Part shown: one piece after another, positions 14,032-21,754 of the stretch
Layout of the letters: each line of letters opens with the position of its first letter
How positions within the stretch are numbered: the stretch's first letter is position 1
Source of the DNA: an uncultured Clostridia bacterium
Lineage (GTDB): Bacteria > Bacillota > Clostridia > Christensenellales > UBA1242
Reading direction: 5' to 3'
Assembly: GCA_947630745.1 (NCBI GenBank)
Contig: CANRIT010000002.1
Coordinates: 36,474 to 100,473, forward strand
DNA: 64,000 nucleotides
Position numbers and translations under genes: made by a program
The notes under the pieces: model-generated
The model's database searches: none
Seen by the model: the letters and a program-made list of their open reading frames with translations, nothing else
Told to the model about the DNA's origin: nothing

Positions 14032-17000
14032 TTATAGAGATATATTTGTAGCGCGTTGTTTTTTGTCAGGTAAAATGATATATAAATTGTTATTTGCAAT
14101 TGTTTGACTGCTTAATTCTATTGCTTCATTTGCAGTTGAATTATCTGGCCAAACAACATCTTTCAGCGTGCTTTTTAAATGTTCTATATGATTTTGTTCC
14201 CTGCCTTCAATTAAGTTAGGGTCGCGGTAAACTTTTTCCATATGCCACCTTGTGTGGTCGGTATTTTTTACAAGTGCGCCATTTTCAACAGTTTTATATT
14301 GGCAAAGCAAACGAATATCATCTGGGTTATCGAACAATTTGCTCATGTCGCGGTCTTTGTAATAGCCGTTAACATTTAATCCACCATCAAAGTCCACTGT
14401 TTTGTTATATGTCCATGCTGGACGAGCGCCAAATAGATTAAACACAATTGTAAGGTCGCTGCCTTTATCATCATAACTTTCACCATTCCAAAAATATGGT
14501 TTGTTTGATTCGTAAGCCGCAACTATAAATAAAACTGGGTTACAATAACGGTTTCTTAAAACTTTAATAGGGTCACTAAGCCCATCATTGGTTTTTCCAA
14601 ACCATTCTGCGTATTTATCATATGTTTTATTAACGGCGTCATAACCAAAACCTTCACCATAGCCCTTGTCTATGCAAATCTTACTTAATGTATTATAACA
14701 CAATATATCATTAAAGCCCTTAAAATAGCAACCCATATTCTTTTTATTTTCAAATAATATGGCCGCGTTAGATTCTGTAAACACTACATTTTCAAAATAG
14801 GCTTTATCGTTTGTAAATGACAATTGATAGCATGCCCATGAAGCATATCTTAATACACTATTTTTAATGTAACTATAAGTGCCTAGTTCATCTCTCTTAT
14901 TCCCGCCATTTCCAGTGTCTGGAACTGAATTGTCGTAGAATGTGTTAACCTTAGACATATATTGAATGTCGCTATAATAAGCATAACCAATTCTAAACAC
15001 CATAGCTTGTTTAGTTCGTGATATTATGTCTGTAGAATTAGAACCCTTAAGTGTCAAGTTATAAATGTGCTCAAATGATGCACCATTGTGATATCCAAGT
15101 TGGCTTACTGCATAACCATTATCAGTGTCTTTTTTACTATAGGCCTCATCAATCAATTGTTGATTGCGTGCTTGTAAGTTTATGTGATACCCATTTCCAT
15201 ACACGGTTGTTTTACTTACATTGTCTGGGCTTGTTAAAACTGTATTTTCTTCTGGGTTTGGAATTTCACCTGGACCATATAAATTTGTGTGAAGAACAAT
15301 TTTGTCGTTGTTGTAATAACCTTCTGCGTCAAACACATTAACAACTTGGTCATCGTCAAGCACATTAAAGTTAAAGTGGCGATTTATTCCACCAACCGCA
15401 CCATCTCCCGCTTCAATTTGCAAGAATGAGTAGGCGTTTTTGCTTGGGTCAAATATGCGGTCGGTGTCGTCCTTTTCAACCAGTTGTGGCTGCACCCAAT
15501 TTTTATCGTCCGCGAAGTTTCCAAAATAACTGTTTTGCACATCGCTTTCAGTTAGTCCTGCAAAATTGCCGAAATATATGCGTGCATATCCCGGCTCACT
15601 AAACACGTCCACCCAAATTACGCCGTTTGGATTTTTGCCATCTTTGCCAACAACAACATTGCCCGCTTGGTCTTTTAAAACATAGCCATCTTCATCTGGT
15701 GTAATTGTGTAGGTAGTGCCGCCAAATGTTACATCGTATCCAAGTTGAGATGTTACAATTTGTTTATCATTTCCAACAACGCGGGTTAAATTCCAACAAA
15801 TAACTTCTGGGTTGGCAGTTTGTTCACCAATAAGGTTGGATATCGCTTTAAATGGCATTTTAAAGTAATCCACCACGCTACCATAATAGCTGTGCTTTGC
15901 AAACACGCGCACTTGTTGAATACCTAAATACACATCATCCTTTTTGTTGGAGATGTCAAATCCTTTAAATTCCACCGAGGTCAAATTTATCCTTGATAGG
16001 TGCAAGGTTGTGGATAAATCTTTATAACTTATTTTAACATCATTAATAAATTCTTTTTTGCCGTTAAACTCCAACGTGATTTGCTTGTTTAATGCGCTGT
16101 AATTTGCATCCCAGCCATCCAAGCCCGTAAGGTCAACATTAAACATTCCTTTAAATGTATCGTCATCGCCAAACCCGCCTAAAAGGTTAGTTTCGGTTAC
16201 AATTTCAAGCGTAATTTGGTCTAACACATCGCTTGGCACTTTTAATGGATATTCTAGGCTATCTTTAACATGGTCAATTGTGCCAATTGTGTTGTTTAAT
16301 GCAATAAATTTAATGCCAAAATCGCTTAATTCAACCTTGTTTACAACAAAATTAAAGGTTGCATTGCCGCATTTAACATCGATTGTGTTTGCGGTTTGCA
16401 CATTTAATGTAATAATTCCATTTTCCGCATTCATCCAACCAGTTTGCGAATCTATTTTATATTGTATTGTTTGGTCGGTCACTTTTCTTCCGTCCGCACG
16501 GCAAGGTACAACATTAAATGTCAACTCGTCAAGCAGTGTTTTGTATATCTCTTCGTTTACAATCTCAGTTTGATTATTTGTTATTTTAAGTTGGTCCGCT
16601 TTTGAATTTACGGTCACGCTTAGGTTAAATCTAGATTTGCCAACTTGGATTACCATTGACTGTTCGCTACAAACTTCATTGGCGTGCAAAATTATTATGT
16701 TGCCTTCAACTTCATTTGTCACGTATGAATTTTGGCTTATAATTGGCTTTGCTTCTGTTTCAGTTAAAGTAAGTTCAATTTGCTCACCAATATTGTTAAA
16801 TGTAATCTTATTTGTTGCACCTTCTTGTTTGCTTAATTGTTCGCCCGCCATGGTAAGTATTGCATCTTTGCCAACTTCCGATTCAATTTTGCTTATTGTT
16901 AAATTTTCCGTGTTGGTTACAAGTGTATCCGTATTAAAGTCGTACGCTTTTGACACCACAACAACATCAATAAAGTTTACGCAATCAATATCGGCACCAA

Positions 17001-18120
17001 ACACAAATCTATGTTTGTTGTTATCAAAAGTTATCAGGTCTAAATTTGGTGTAATTCCGTCCACATTGCAGGTTATTGACACTATCGATTTGCTTGCATC
17101 CACATCATCAAAATCAAACCCTTCCCAAACATCAAACCAATCGTTTGGCAACTCTGCGCCCGGCTGGCAGTCGCTCCACTGCACCAAATTTTGAATAAAT
17201 ATAGGTTTTGCAAAATATCCGCAAGTAGAAACAAATGTTTTGCGTGCGCTAACTTGCCCGCCACCAAAATCGGTTGCGGTAGCGGTTATTGTAACTTTAC
17301 CCGCGGTTTTAAAAGATATTTTGCCATTATCATCCACTGTGGCAATGTCTTGGTTGCTAGAAAAGTAGGAATATACAATATCTTCTTGGTCTATATCTTC
17401 TGGCAACGCGCGCATTGAAGGGAATTGCACACTAGTGGCACTGGTTTGAATAACTTCCTTTTGTTCGCTTGTTGTTAACCCCGTTATCTTTGCATGGCAA
17501 GTTATTTCAAGTTCGGCATAAATACTCTCATTTTCAACCGAAGTGGCTATCACCTTTGCTGTTCCAGCACCCATCGCTGTTGCTGTTCCGTTGGCGCTTA
17601 CATCCAAAATTGCAGGATTTGAACTAGTCCATTTTATGCCTTTATTTTCTGCTTCTTGTGGATATATGCTTGCGGTTAATTCGACTTTGTCGCCTTGATA
17701 TAGGTCGCTTAATTGTTCATTTATTTTTACTGCATGCACTTTATCATCAGTAACAATAACCTTTCTTGTTGCCGATGCGGTTAAGTTTTCTTTACTTGTA
17801 ACGGTTACATATGTTTCACCATAAAAATTTGCGTGAATTATGCCATTGCTGTCTATTGTTACAATATCTTCATTTTCGCTTGTATAGTTAAGTTTTTTGT
17901 TTGTTGCTTTAATTGGCAATATGGTTATTTCTTCGCCCAAATTGTAGTTAGGCGCATTATCTTCATTATCCATAACAAGCACAATTGTGTCTTTGTTTGT
18001 AAGTTCAATCGTTTCCACATAAATATGCACAGAAATACTCATTATTGCACCGCTAACAAGCAAAATTGCTAGCAAAATAAGCGGCAATACAATTATGGTG
18101 GATGTCATTAGTTTTTTCAT
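14032..18120 (-). CDS. Large secreted/surface protein with bacterial Ig-like (Big_2) repeats
   Basis: 1362 aa; N-terminal hydrophobic anchor; repeats such as YTSENEDIVTIDSNGII, WTSSNPAILDVSANGTATA, FSSNQDIATVDDNGKI. Confidence 0.85.
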   Translation of the reverse strand: MKKLMTSTIIVLPLILLAILLVSGAIMSISVHIYVETIELTNKDTIVLVMDNEDNAPNYNLGEEITILPIKATNKKLNYTSENEDIVTIDSNGIIHANFYGETYVTVTSKENLTASATRKVIVTDDKVHAVKINEQLSDLYQGDKVELTASIYPQEAENKGIKWTSSNPAILDVSANGTATAMGAGTAKVIATSVENESIYAELEITCHAKITGLTTSEQKEVIQTSATSVQFPSMRALPEDIDQEDIVYSYFSSNQDIATVDDNGKISFKTAGKVTITATATDFGGGQVSARKTFVSTCGYFAKPIFIQNLVQWSDCQPGAELPNDWFDVWEGFDFDDVDASKSIVSITCNVDGITPNLDLITFDNNKHRFVFGADIDCVNFIDVVVVSKAYDFNTDTLVTNTENLTISKIESEVGKDAILTMAGEQLSKQEGATNKITFNNIGEQIELTLTETEAKPIISQNSYVTNEVEGNIIILHANEVCSEQSMVIQVGKSRFNLSVTVNSKADQLKITNNQTEIVNEEIYKTLLDELTFNVVPCRADGRKVTDQTIQYKIDSQTGWMNAENGIITLNVQTANTIDVKCGNATFNFVVNKVELSDFGIKFIALNNTIGTIDHVKDSLEYPLKVPSDVLDQITLEIVTETNLLGGFGDDDTFKGMFNVDLTGLDGWDANYSALNKQITLEFNGKKEFINDVKISYKDLSTTLHLSRINLTSVEFKGFDISNKKDDVYLGIQQVRVFAKHSYYGSVVDYFKMPFKAISNLIGEQTANPEVICWNLTRVVGNDKQIVTSQLGYDVTFGGTTYTITPDEDGYVLKDQAGNVVVGKDGKNPNGVIWVDVFSEPGYARIYFGNFAGLTESDVQNSYFGNFADDKNWVQPQLVEKDDTDRIFDPSKNAYSFLQIEAGDGAVGGINRHFNFNVLDDDQVVNVFDAEGYYNNDKIVLHTNLYGPGEIPNPEENTVLTSPDNVSKTTVYGNGYHINLQARNQQLIDEAYSKKDTDNGYAVSQLGYHNGASFEHIYNLTLKGSNSTDIISRTKQAMVFRIGYAYYSDIQYMSKVNTFYDNSVPDTGNGGNKRDELGTYSYIKNSVLRYASWACYQLSFTNDKAYFENVVFTESNAAILFENKKNMGCYFKGFNDILCYNTLSKICIDKGYGEGFGYDAVNKTYDKYAEWFGKTNDGLSDPIKVLRNRYCNPVLFIVAAYESNKPYFWNGESYDDKGSDLTIVFNLFGARPAWTYNKTVDFDGGLNVNGYYKDRDMSKLFDNPDDIRLLCQYKTVENGALVKNTDHTRWHMEKVYRDPNLIEGREQNHIEHLKSTLKDVVWPDNSTANEAIELSSQTIANNNLYIILPDKKQRATNISL

Positions 18121-18129
18121 AATTTCCTC

Positions 18130-19731
18130 CTACGATTCTATCTTTCTATACTTTTTGTTTGCGGTGAACCAGAAAACAAGCACATTTACAAGCGAATAGA
18201 TTGCTGCGGTTGCAATTATTATTAAATATGTAACCGCTTTGTAATTTTCCATAACTCGCGGTAAAACAATGCTTGCGACACCAAACAGCGCGGCAATTAT
18301 AAGTCCTATAACAAGCATAATTGTAACATTTATCTCTTCCGCCTCGCCGTTGGCTTTTGGTTTTAAATTAGGATTGACTAGGTTTAAATTCACGCCATTA
18401 AACACAATGCCAACAACAAACAAAAGTTGTGAAATTGCAAGCACAATAAGTTCGATTGTTGTTATAAATTTTAGGGCTGCCAAGACGATTGTGCTAATAA
18501 GCAATGCACCAAGGCTAACAACCACATTAACTGCTCCTTTAATGAGCAATTGTTTGCGATAGTTTACTGGTATCATTTTGGTTATATAAAAGTTTTTGCC
18601 TTCTATGCTTAAAATTGTTGCCGCGAACGAACTTATCATTGCCATAAATACGGATACAACCAGCATTGAAACACCAAAGTTTATACCGCTGCCAATTTGC
18701 GCTGTGCCAACCAAACCAACCAACCTGTTGCAGAAAAACACCATAACTGGGGTGGATATTGCCACACCTAAATAGAAAAACGAATAGGTTTTTGTTTGGA
18801 TAATTTCGTTTATTGTATGTTTTAAAATTGCCACTCCGCTTTTGCTATTATCCAGTTTTGAATATCTTTTGTAAACATCACTGCCGCCATCCAAAACTTT
18901 GGTGCGTATTTTTGTATAAACAACTTTCGCAACCAAAATTCCAAGTCCAATAAACACCACACCAAAACCAAGTGTTGCACCCAAACCAAGCCAAAATTTA
19001 TTAAAGAATATTATGTTTGATAGGTAATATGCTGGGTTGTAATAGCCATTTAAACTGGAAATCAAATTTTGCCAAATTTCAAGCGTGCCCTCTTCCCAAT
19101 TGCGATGGATAAAGAATTTTGCCAGCACATTTAAAACATAATAATAGGCAACAAACAAGCCAACCAAAAGAATTATGAACAATATAATTTTAATAACATT
19201 TTGTCTTTTTAATAATGTGCTTAAATACATTATTGGAATTGCAATAAAAATTGACAAAGCAAATGGGACAATTGGTAGCAAAATTGCTGCTAAAATAACG
19301 CCAAACACAAACGCCACAGATACGCAATTCATAGCAATGCCAAATGCTATCATTATAGGCAGAAGTAAAATTAAAGAATAGATTGTTAAGTCAATATAAT
19401 TTAAAATTAAACAACTTATAAACATCTTTATTGGGCTTAATGGAAACCTTGCCGTAATGTTTAAATCGCCCGGATGATAAAGTCGGTTAATTTGCATCCC
19501 AATTGCAACCACGGCCAAACCAATCATAATAATTGTTAAATACAAAACGGACAAATCTTTTGGCCTTACACTTATGCTCATTTTAAGCACAAAAGAAAGC
19601 CCAGCAACAAGCGCCAATGCAACCAAAACTGCCAGCAGCGCTATAAGTGAAGTTACAATTGCATTAAGTTTGCTATTATTGCGGTTTAACCCCCATTTTA
19701 ATTTAAGTTGCAAGCGGATGAAATTAAACAT
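18130..19731 (-). CDS. ABC exporter permease (multi-TM)
   Basis: 533 aa with many hydrophobic helices; overlaps the ATPase stop. Confidence 0.85.
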   Translation of the reverse strand: MFNFIRLQLKLKWGLNRNNSKLNAIVTSLIALLAVLVALALVAGLSFVLKMSISVRPKDLSVLYLTIIMIGLAVVAIGMQINRLYHPGDLNITARFPLSPIKMFISCLILNYIDLTIYSLILLLPIMIAFGIAMNCVSVAFVFGVILAAILLPIVPFALSIFIAIPIMYLSTLLKRQNVIKIILFIILLVGLFVAYYYVLNVLAKFFIHRNWEEGTLEIWQNLISSLNGYYNPAYYLSNIIFFNKFWLGLGATLGFGVVFIGLGILVAKVVYTKIRTKVLDGGSDVYKRYSKLDNSKSGVAILKHTINEIIQTKTYSFFYLGVAISTPVMVFFCNRLVGLVGTAQIGSGINFGVSMLVVSVFMAMISSFAATILSIEGKNFYITKMIPVNYRKQLLIKGAVNVVVSLGALLISTIVLAALKFITTIELIVLAISQLLFVVGIVFNGVNLNLVNPNLKPKANGEAEEINVTIMLVIGLIIAALFGVASIVLPRVMENYKAVTYLIIIATAAIYSLVNVLVFWFTANKKYRKIES

Positions 19732-20443
19732 CGTCCACCTCGTTTACTTCCATAAATATCTTTTGAAGGTTTGCTTTTTTATTTTTGCGCAAGTCAACAA
19801 TCTTTGCAACTTCGCCATGCTTTATAAATACAACTTTGTCACACGCCTTTTGCACCGTTTCCAAACTGTGGGAAGAAAACAAAACGGATTTTCTTGTTTT
19901 TGCATAATCTTTAATAAATTTTATAAGCAACGCCATAGTTTGTGGGTCAAGCCCAACCATTGGCTCATCCAAAATCCAAAGCGATGGATTATGAACAATT
20001 GCACCCAAAATGCAAATTTTTTGCTTCATCCCGTGCGAATAGTTTGCAATTTGCATATCAAGCGCGTAATCTATGTTAAATTGTTTTGCAAGCGTATCGG
20101 TTACATATTGCTTTTGCCCTTTTGTTGCACCATATAAACTGCCCATATAGTTTATATATTCACGCCCAGTCAACTTTTCGTAAACAGAGTGGTCGTCTGG
20201 CACATAACCGATACGCTTTTTTGCTTGCTCGCTTTGCTTTACAATATCAAAACCATCAATTTCAATTGCGCCTTGTTGAAATGGCAAAACACCAATTATG
20301 CTTTTTATAATTGTAGACTTGCCCGCACCATTGCTGCCCACCAAACCAACAACCTCACCATTATTAACGGTAAAACTAACATCCTTGGCAGAAAGTCTGT
20401 CGCTGTTTTGATATTTTTTATTTAAACCTTTAACTACAAGCAT
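19724..20443 (-). CDS. ABC transporter ATP-binding protein
   Basis: GSNGAGKS Walker A, YSHGMKQK signature, ILDEP Walker B, SSH. Confidence 0.96.
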   Translation of the reverse strand: MLVVKGLNKKYQNSDRLSAKDVSFTVNNGEVVGLVGSNGAGKSTIIKSIIGVLPFQQGAIEIDGFDIVKQSEQAKKRIGYVPDDHSVYEKLTGREYINYMGSLYGATKGQKQYVTDTLAKQFNIDYALDMQIANYSHGMKQKICILGAIVHNPSLWILDEPMVGLDPQTMALLIKFIKDYAKTRKSVLFSSHSLETVQKACDKVVFIKHGEVAKIVDLRKNKKANLQKIFMEVNEVDDV

Positions 20444-20515
20444 ATTTTCCCCCTAAAATATTTTGTGCAGTTTTTTTATTTTTCTACATTTTTCTACATT
20501 TTTCTTGCTACCTTA

Positions 20516-20542
20516 ATTTTAGCGCCCCCCCCCCTAATGTCA
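20516..20542 (-). promoter_or_regulatory. Promoter with G9 tract in the spacer (candidate phase-variable promoter)
   Basis: Minus strand TTGACA-ttaGGGGGGGGGcgc-TAAAAT; spacer 15 bp. Confidence 0.65.
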
Positions 20543-20879
20543 AGGAAATTTAACAAAATTTTAAAAAATATAGATATTTTTTTAAATTTTTAATTTTTTT
20601 TTACAAAAAACATAAATAAAAAATCTTTATTTAATAAAAAAAGAGAGTTATTTGCTCTCTTTTTAAGATAAGGTTATAAACTCAACCAATTTTATTAATA
20701 ATTTGTTAGAAAGAAAATTCTTTCTTTGAAATATTTTGTTTTGACATATATAGCAAACATAAGACAAATATGAAAACAATTTATCAATTTTAATCTCTAA
20801 ATTAAAAAATTTTTATAAAATTTATTTTGCATTACAACTGCCCCACCAAACAAAAACAGTCGCGCGGCTGGTTGTTTTT

Positions 20880-21671
20880 TTATTTTAATTTAGAGCGGAT
20901 AAAGGTAAAAATTTTTGATATGTTTTGTGGCGATTTGAAAGCCCTATCACTGTGCCCAGCGCCATCAATTAAATCAAGTCTAATGTCAACGCCCATTTTT
21001 AAGGCTTTTTCAAAAAACAGTTTGCTTTGCACAAAAGGCACAATATCATCAGCCGTTCCGTGTTGAATTAAGGTGCTTGGCAGGTTGGTTGAAAGATGGT
21101 GAAATGGGCTTGCTTTTTTAAATTCATCATCGCCAATTTCGCTCAAGTTTTTGTTGAAATAGGTTTGTGTGTTTTGTATTAAATAGGTTTTGTTTTCATT
21201 GTCATCGTCTAATTTTTTTGTAAGATTTATTAAAGATAACAAATCCAAAACCGGATATAGGGCAACAACGCAAACTTTTTTAAATTTTTTAGTTAGCGAT
21301 TTATTTAATGCCAACATAAGCGCATAATTAGCACCTGAGGATGCGCCCATAAATGCTATTTTGTAATCTAGATGATATTCCTTTGCTTTGGATAGCAAAA
21401 ATTCCACTGCTTGCTGGCAATCGTTTATTCCCGCAGGGAAAGGCGCTTCCCCGCTAAGGCGATAATTTACACTTGCAATTACAAAATTTTGATTGTTCGC
21501 TTGCGCTAAATTGTTTATAGTGCCTTGCGTCTTATCCCCGCCAGAAAATCCGCCGCCATGAATGAAAAATATAAGCGGTAATTTTTTGTTTAAATAATCG
21601 TCTGGAAGATATAAATCCAATTTTTGAAATTCACTTGAATTTCCATAACAAATATCTTTTAAAACTTTCAT
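20880..21671 (-). CDS. Alpha/beta hydrolase (HSL/BD-FAE-like esterase)
   Basis: HGGGF oxyanion motif, SVNYRLS, GASSG nucleophile elbow, QHGTADDIVP, GAGH. Confidence 0.92.
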   Translation of the reverse strand: MKVLKDICYGNSSEFQKLDLYLPDDYLNKKLPLIFFIHGGGFSGGDKTQGTINNLAQANNQNFVIASVNYRLSGEAPFPAGINDCQQAVEFLLSKAKEYHLDYKIAFMGASSGANYALMLALNKSLTKKFKKVCVVALYPVLDLLSLINLTKKLDDDNENKTYLIQNTQTYFNKNLSEIGDDEFKKASPFHHLSTNLPSTLIQHGTADDIVPFVQSKLFFEKALKMGVDIRLDLIDGAGHSDRAFKSPQNISKIFTFIRSKLK

Positions 21672-21754
21672 AACTCTCCTTAAACAACTCCCCCGCCACA
21701 ATCACCTTGCCTCACTGTATATTGCATCTTTCCCACACAAAAAACACATCCGCT

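Follow-up and report, generated by a model that had tools for sequence, protein, structure and literature searches.

The window, i.e., the whole 64-kb stretch of DNA that was analysed, contains an operon of three tightly packed genes on the minus strand, each of which is preceded by a Shine-Dalgarno sequence. Gene 1 (19724..20443) encodes an ABC transporter ATP-binding protein of 239 aa, an ATPase of the DrrA/ABC-2 exporter type (PF00005, 1.6e-31), for which the best NCBIfam match is the drrA subfamily with a score below the cut-off of that subfamily. Gene 2 (18130..19731), which overlaps gene 1 by 8 nt, encodes a membrane permease of 533 aa with a weak match to PF16949 (ABC_tran_2). Gene 3 (14032..18120) begins 9 nt past the end of gene 2 and encodes a protein of 1362 aa that has a membrane anchor or signal at its N-terminus and contains three Big_2 Ig-like domains; its long C-terminal region matches no family. 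The NCBIfam search gave no match for genes 2 and 3, and when the gene 3 product was compared by sequence with solved structures the Big_2 region alone was matched. Its N-terminal membrane anchor and three Big_2 domains suggest that this product is surface-exposed, and the module is most safely described as a transporter coupled to a surface protein. The operon of an ABC transporter and an Ig-like surface protein that had been predicted downstream of the promoter is present. Homologues of the permease are numerous (105 at E<=1e-30) and derive nearly all from uncultured gut Clostridia, and the order ATPase-permease-Big_2 is kept in 76 out of 80 related loci.

Upstream of this operon the minus strand reads ...aaatttccTTGACAttaGGGGGGGGGGcgcTAAAATtaaggtagc... 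across the promoter. A -35 hexamer TTGACA (20538..20543, 6/6 matches) and a -10 hexamer TAAAAT (20516..20521, 5/6 matches), both on the minus strand, enclose a spacer TTA-G10-CGC of 16 bp (20522..20537), and the promoter as a whole, TTGACA-TTA-G10-CGC-TAAAAT, extends from 20543 to 20516. The G homopolymer (20525..20534 on the minus strand; C10 on the plus strand), which is the proposed slippage-prone element, fills 10 of the 16 spacer positions, although its length of 10, as for any homopolymer in a short-read metagenome assembly, may be off by one base. In a scan against the consensus promoter, TTGACA-16-TAAAAT, with 11 out of 12 matches, is the best promoter match of the intergenic region, which measures 436 bp and has a G+C content of 20% outside the spacer. 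A homopolymer situated within the -35/-10 spacer of an 11/12 promoter is the arrangement of the porA and tp0126 type. The 3' end of the -10 hexamer lies 72 nt upstream of the ATG of gene 1 (20443). The original prediction of a perfect TTGACA and TAAAAT on the minus strand (20543..20538 and 20521..20516), of a spacer made up chiefly of one G homopolymer in AT-rich DNA, and of a position some 70 bp upstream of the operon agrees with these results. It had, however, counted the tract as G9, the spacer as 15 bp and the element as 20516-20542, whereas the tract is G10, the spacer 16 bp and the element, at 20516..20543, one base longer.

The same scan revealed no TG extended -10 motif in the G10 promoter, and its strength should, therefore, depend on the -35 box and the spacing. 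Further upstream only weak AT-rich promoter-like sites (9 out of 12 matches) occur; these could provide basal transcription that is independent of the tract, but the G10 promoter is the only strong promoter of the operon. The tract is also exceptional in its surroundings: it is the sole G/C run of at least 7 in the 64-kb window, for which an i.i.d. model predicts 0.002 runs of 10 or more.

Transcription would start about 7 nt past the -10 hexamer, and this yields a predicted 5' leader of ca. 66 nt (20444..20509, minus strand) that includes the Shine-Dalgarno sequence AGGGGG (20449..20454, minus strand). A repeat search also located in the predicted leader a perfect 10-nt tandem repeat of 2.8 copies (20478..20505), with ATTTTTCTAC as the repeat unit on the plus strand; this repeat could vary in copy number or could form a putative binding site. 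Similar “AAAAATGTA” and “AACATTTACAA” repeats are found at several contig ends of the genome (the end of C2 and the start of C15). We rejected a known RNA element in the leader or the intergenic region, since the search of Rfam families gave no match in either apart from a sub-threshold chance hit. Upstream of the operon lies an esterase gene (20880..21701), which ends at 20880. Right behind it comes a GC-rich palindrome with runs of A and T on its flanks (20857..20870). This palindrome is likely a bidirectional terminator that would shield the operon from upstream transcription, and the operon, therefore, most likely relies on its own promoter. A terminator-like hairpin, aaaaAGAGAGcaaataaCTCTCTttttt, occurs on the minus strand at ca. 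20637-20665, some 100 nt upstream of the G10 promoter. There is no annotated gene between this hairpin and the esterase terminator, and the hairpin may reflect a small transcript or serve as an extra insulator. In a relative (L023) a similar hairpin is followed immediately by a G10 tract.

To place the tract in a wider context, 80 permease-encoding loci were compared, nearly all of which belong to rabbit-gut metagenome-assembled genomes labelled “uncultured Clostridia bacterium,” while the more distant relatives carry the labels Christensenellaceae, Candidatus Borkfalkia and Candidatus Faecicola. Homopolymer tracts are distributed far from randomly over these loci. The 260 nt upstream of the ATPase gene contain 23 runs of at least 8 in 20.1 kb (1.14 per kb), with several further runs falling just outside the 260-nt limit, and the rest of the loci contain only 0.030 such runs per kb, a 38-fold enrichment upstream of the operon. 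The orthologous tracts are mostly located between TTGACA and TATAAT or TAAAAT, consist of G or C, lie at either end of the spacer and range from 7 to 15 in length. Homologous promoters with conserved flanks differ essentially in the length of the tract, i.e., G7 in L053 (17-bp spacer), G8 in L059 (18 bp) and G9 in L060 and L056 (19 bp). Likewise, L038 has G9 (18 bp) and L093 has G11 (20 bp) while their ATPase genes are 91% identical in nucleotides, and L029 has G8 where L030, at 97% identity, has TGGGG.

Mapped on the tree of the ATPase (79 tips), the presence of a tract requires 21 changes, compared to a mean of 24.2 for shuffled labels, and the well-supported branches force at least 9 tract changes. 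This indicates that gain and loss of the tract are fast. Four relatives (L022, L025, L026, and L077) possess the operon without a tract and have an extended -10 promoter, tgtgTTATAAT, instead. The occurrence of such a tract-free promoter in close relatives implies that switching is not essential to the operon.

The nearest relative (G001/L021), whose permease is 93% and whose ATPase is 91% identical, has the promoter TTGACT-TA-G11-CGC-GATAAT with a spacer of, again, 16 bp. In this one comparator of the same promoter the tract is thus G11 instead of G10 while both spacers measure 16 bp, which points to substitutions at the edge of the tract rather than to a net slippage event. The comparison shows conservation of the design, and it suggests that a spacer of 16 bp is favoured. 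A look-up of this 93%-identical permease (P0001) gave a 2.8-kb contig that ends before the promoter, and for P0028, which is present on seven contigs, the one contig compared has G10, like the copy in the genome collection. An exact-sequence look-up of the ATPase gave no record. In metagenome contigs, a pattern of the exact flanks with a variable gap gave no match, and the best match to the permease was 48% identical, i.e., no material of the same species was retrieved. One related contig starts with runs of G34 and G16 at its very end (L031:7-76); these are probably a poly-G artefact of two-colour Illumina sequencing and call for caution with tract counts at contig ends.

The genome itself, that of a rabbit-gut bacterium, comprises 1.13 Mb in 19 contigs with a G+C content of about 37%. 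A gap followed by a second mode in the distribution of run lengths is the usual signature of contingency loci, and the G/C runs of this genome follow such a distribution when compared with the counts expected genome-wide under an i.i.d. model. Runs of length 6 number 32 where 63 are expected and runs of length 7 are lacking altogether (11.8 expected), while 15 runs of 8 or more (observed range 8-14) occur where 2.7 are expected and 12 runs of 10 or more where 0.095 are expected. Long runs are thus clearly over-represented relative to base composition, and the absence of length-7 runs together with the halved number of length-6 runs suggests purifying selection against mutable runs outside contingency loci.

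About ten of the long tracts are immediately preceded by a TTGACA-like box and have TAAAAT or TATAAT on their other side. Three others lie inside open reading frames, and at two of these, a G11 and a C11 tract (G000:C1:24596-24606 and G000:C4:38211-38221), the gene is split into two reading frames. The split genes encode a BspA-type LRR lipoprotein (201 + 843 aa) and a giant surface protein of ca. 3400 aa (540 + 2876 aa), and seem to be genes with translational phase variation that were sampled in their OFF frame. The third intragenic tract is in frame, near the N-terminus of an ORF of 222 aa. Two more tracts abut start codons, a G10 located 3 nt before the ATG of a collagen-repeat/GDSL lipoprotein (G000:C13:6494-6503) and a G11 located 6 nt before the ATG of a nucleotidyltransferase-aminotransferase fusion (G000:C9:28088-28098). 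Both occupy the Shine-Dalgarno position, an unusual place for a variable tract. The genes linked to the tracts are of a kind that is typical for a phasome: besides this fusion, they encode giant surface proteins, BspA-LRR and Big_2 proteins and a GDSL lipoprotein.

Five contig ends fall inside or right next to a poly-G promoter (the ends of C3, C13 and C17 and the starts of C6 and C7), so that the true number of tracts in the genome is at least 17. The assembler failed at several of them, and assemblies of this lineage break at such tracts. The end of C3 with the start of C6, and the end of C13 with the end of C17, would join into TTGACA-Gn-TAAAAT promoters. Loss of mismatch repair was considered as a source of hypermutability and rejected, since both MutS and MutL are intact. 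Also a portable cassette common to the tract promoters of the genome was considered, but by eye these promoters share only generic promoter similarity, and such a cassette is not supported for the present locus.

How the tracts relate to the spacing that the organism prefers can be judged from the TTGACA..TAnnnT pairs of the genome that lack a tract. These occur 122 times with a spacer of 17 bp and 39 times with one of 16 bp, whereas the number at 18 bp (n=11) is at the background level (~10-20). The sharp excess at 17 bp and the smaller one at 16 bp imply that for the RNA polymerase of this organism 17 bp is the regular spacing and 16 bp is tolerable, whereas 18 bp is hardly used. The tract-bearing promoters of this genome and of the orthologous loci, in contrast, have spacers that range from 12 to 23 bp without a peak, a spread that is expected if promoters were caught in arbitrary slippage states and that is not what a fixed structural element predicts. 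The original prediction regarded the assembled tract as a low or OFF state. This assignment rested on the miscount discussed above; because the tract is G10 and not G9, it is wrong in its premise, and a spacer of 16 bp is in fact the second commonest spacing. Two paralogous genes for BspA-LRR/Listeria-Bacteroides-repeat surface proteins share the promoter design, with G10 in a 19-bp spacer (G000:C5:8397-8406) and G9 in a 15-bp spacer (G000:C8:58349-58357), and by the 16-17 bp rule both promoters are apparently OFF-like.

Beyond this genome, the pattern TTGACA-N0-9-G8 was detected in 52 out of 301 sampled genomes of the order, representing 33 out of 151 genera, whereas a reversed control pattern gave 3 hits. 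The 41 genomes of the same genus (among them G001-G024 and G325-G340) contain between 0 and 18 G/C runs of at least 8 per 1-Mb genome, a spread that may in part reflect assembly quality, and 10 out of the 41 have no run of this length. This means that the phasome comes and goes as a whole, or else that tracts are missing from some of the assemblies.

We consider it likely that the G10 tract is a hypermutable simple-sequence repeat in the spacer of a sigma-70-type (sigma-A) promoter, and that it acts as a slippage-driven switch for expression of the three-gene operon. Slipped-strand mispairing at replication would add or remove single G's, and each such change would alter how far apart the -35 and -10 hexamers lie as well as their rotational phasing. 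In a promoter devoid of an extended -10 motif, the strength would then follow the length of the spacer. On the basis of the spacing preference of the organism, G11 (17 bp) should be optimal and give maximal expression, the assembled G10 state (16 bp) should be ON but sub-optimal, and tracts of G9 or shorter and of G12 or longer should be weak or OFF; the predicted ON window is, consequently, G10-G11 and not G10-G12. Cells within one population would express differing amounts of the surface module, and the locus, together with the other long G/C tracts of the genome (at least 17 in all), would make up a multi-locus “phasome” that is distributed over promoter spacers, positions beside start codons and the interior of surface-protein genes. 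That the spacer homopolymer is a candidate phase-variation switch had been proposed originally, and the proposal gains support from the bimodal run lengths, the 38-fold enrichment upstream of the operon, the differences in tract length between homologous promoters and the broad range of tract-bearing spacers as opposed to the sharp 17-bp peak of the others. With the assignment of the states corrected, the mechanism then proposed is also, in our opinion with good confidence, the best explanation.

Alternatively, the G:C block could be a static promoter element that has a structural or protein-binding role and whose length does not change on a population time scale, for example a rigid GC-rich spacer that tunes open-complex formation, or an operator for a regulator. 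Such an element would fit the spacer length of 16 bp in both of the two closest species, and the intact mismatch repair. A fixed site, however, should keep its position, strand and spacing, whereas the orthologous tracts consist of either G or C, abut either box, vary from 7 to 15 in length and produce spacers of 12-23 bp, many of which lie outside the 16-17 bp used by the organism. The absence of length-7 runs and the halving of length-6 runs, which fit selection against unwanted mutable runs, and the three further tracts inside ORFs, two of which split a gene into two frames, also argue against a static role, and we regard it as unlikely. A similarly low probability is assigned to the tracts being a neutral by-product, either of a lineage-specific mutational bias or of hitch-hiking with promoter turnover, in which case effects on expression would be incidental and no switch would be maintained. 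The nearly random presence of the tract on the operon tree, the 10 out of 41 genus genomes without any run of at least 8 and the tract-free promoters that drive the same operon in close relatives are all in line with neutrality. Nevertheless, long runs are concentrated 38-fold in front of one operon and occur preferentially in promoter spacers, compared with the remainder of the genome; run length 7 is missing; and the real pattern outnumbers the reversed one (52 genomes versus 3 hits). All of this points to selection acting on the positions at which long runs are retained.

By far the least probable is that the tract arose as an artefact of sequencing or assembly, be it two-colour Illumina poly-G or mis-assembly. 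The implausible G34 and G16 runs at the start of the related contig L031, and the several contigs of the genome that break at tracts, would be in line with such an origin. The G10 tract, however, is internal to a contig of 144 kb with unique flanks on both sides, is positioned exactly between the promoter hexamers, and has an equivalent at the same place in a genome that was assembled independently from another sample. A slippage-driven switch remains the reading that we prefer.

Taken more broadly, we lean, with moderate confidence, towards a lineage-wide system that keeps being re-invented, in which G/C homopolymers are repeatedly inserted in the -35/-10 spacers of rabbit-gut Clostridia with reduced genomes of ~1 Mb and of other families of the same order. 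The resulting large phasome of commensal Gram-positive bacteria would act mainly on transcription, with an ON window of 16-17 bp that is unusually narrow. Among the 79 species, the ABC/Big_2 operon would have gained or lost its tract, on either strand, no fewer than 9 times and more probably some 20 times, and sister species would alternate in having either a promoter gated by a tract or a constitutive one with an extended -10. If true, uncultured commensal Clostridia of the gut with small genomes diversify their cell surface stochastically by using the same trick at many loci, and the conserved module of a transporter and an Ig-like surface protein is a preferred target of switching. Single consensus assemblies of such organisms would then mask heterogeneity in expression, and in metagenome-assembled genomes the length given for a tract, or a contig break at one, is best read as the average of a population.

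Among a small number of pathogens, Neisseria and Treponema included, slippage of homopolymers in promoter spacers is textbook phase variation, and the design has been established by experiment for T. pallidum tp0126 and N. meningitidis porA (PMC7864442). The literature that was searched described known systems only and contained no account of homopolymer phase variation for uncultured gut Clostridia, whether Christensenellales-like or other. For Treponema pallidum, PMC7864442 summarises (from Giacani et al., 2007, 2015) a poly-G between the -35 and -10 of tp0126 (an OmpW homologue), with optimal transcription at a total spacing of 17 nt, and the poly-G promoters of tprE/G/J/L. The similarities with the present genome are the poly-G in the spacer, the host-associated genome of ~1.1 Mb and the presence of several poly-G tracts linked to surface-protein genes. 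However, T. pallidum is a spirochaete pathogen for which both the variation and the effect on the promoter have been measured, whereas the candidate switch described here belongs to an uncultured, commensal-type gut Clostridia bacterium and has an operon for a transporter and an Ig-like surface protein as its cargo.

In Neisseria meningitidis, expression of porA is graded as high, medium or none by the length of a spacer with a poly-G between -10 and -35, while opc and fetA possess a poly-C at or in the promoter, the opc tract overlapping the -35 and possibly acting via a regulator (PMC7864442). The present tract resembles that of porA in that it is a homopolymer in the promoter of a surface protein and part of a multi-locus phasome in an organism with mismatch repair, and differs from that of opc in lying purely within the spacer. 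N. meningitidis is also, unlike these Clostridia, a Gram-negative pathogen or commensal of humans.

The tracts of Campylobacter jejuni are mostly intragenic and switch translation, and this species is not known to have MutS/MutL. Its low-GC genome has a bimodal distribution of G/C runs, and numerous poly-G contingency loci in it influence surface structures (PMC8437040, PMC13317227). The genome studied here shares the low G+C content, the bimodal run distribution and the surface-linked tracts, but most of its tracts are in promoter spacers and its MutS and MutL are intact. The tract of the Bifidobacterium breve pilus is likewise intragenic and not situated in a promoter spacer. Expression of the sortase-dependent pilus in this species is reported to be governed by a G-tract that switches ON and OFF through replication slippage (PMC9187656). 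B. breve is a Gram-positive gut commensal in which, as is proposed here, slippage of a G-tract switches a surface structure. The type of switch proposed here is, therefore, already known from porA and tp0126, while a lineage-wide promoter-spacer phasome with a fast turnover, which repeatedly targets a conserved surface operon, would be moderately novel.
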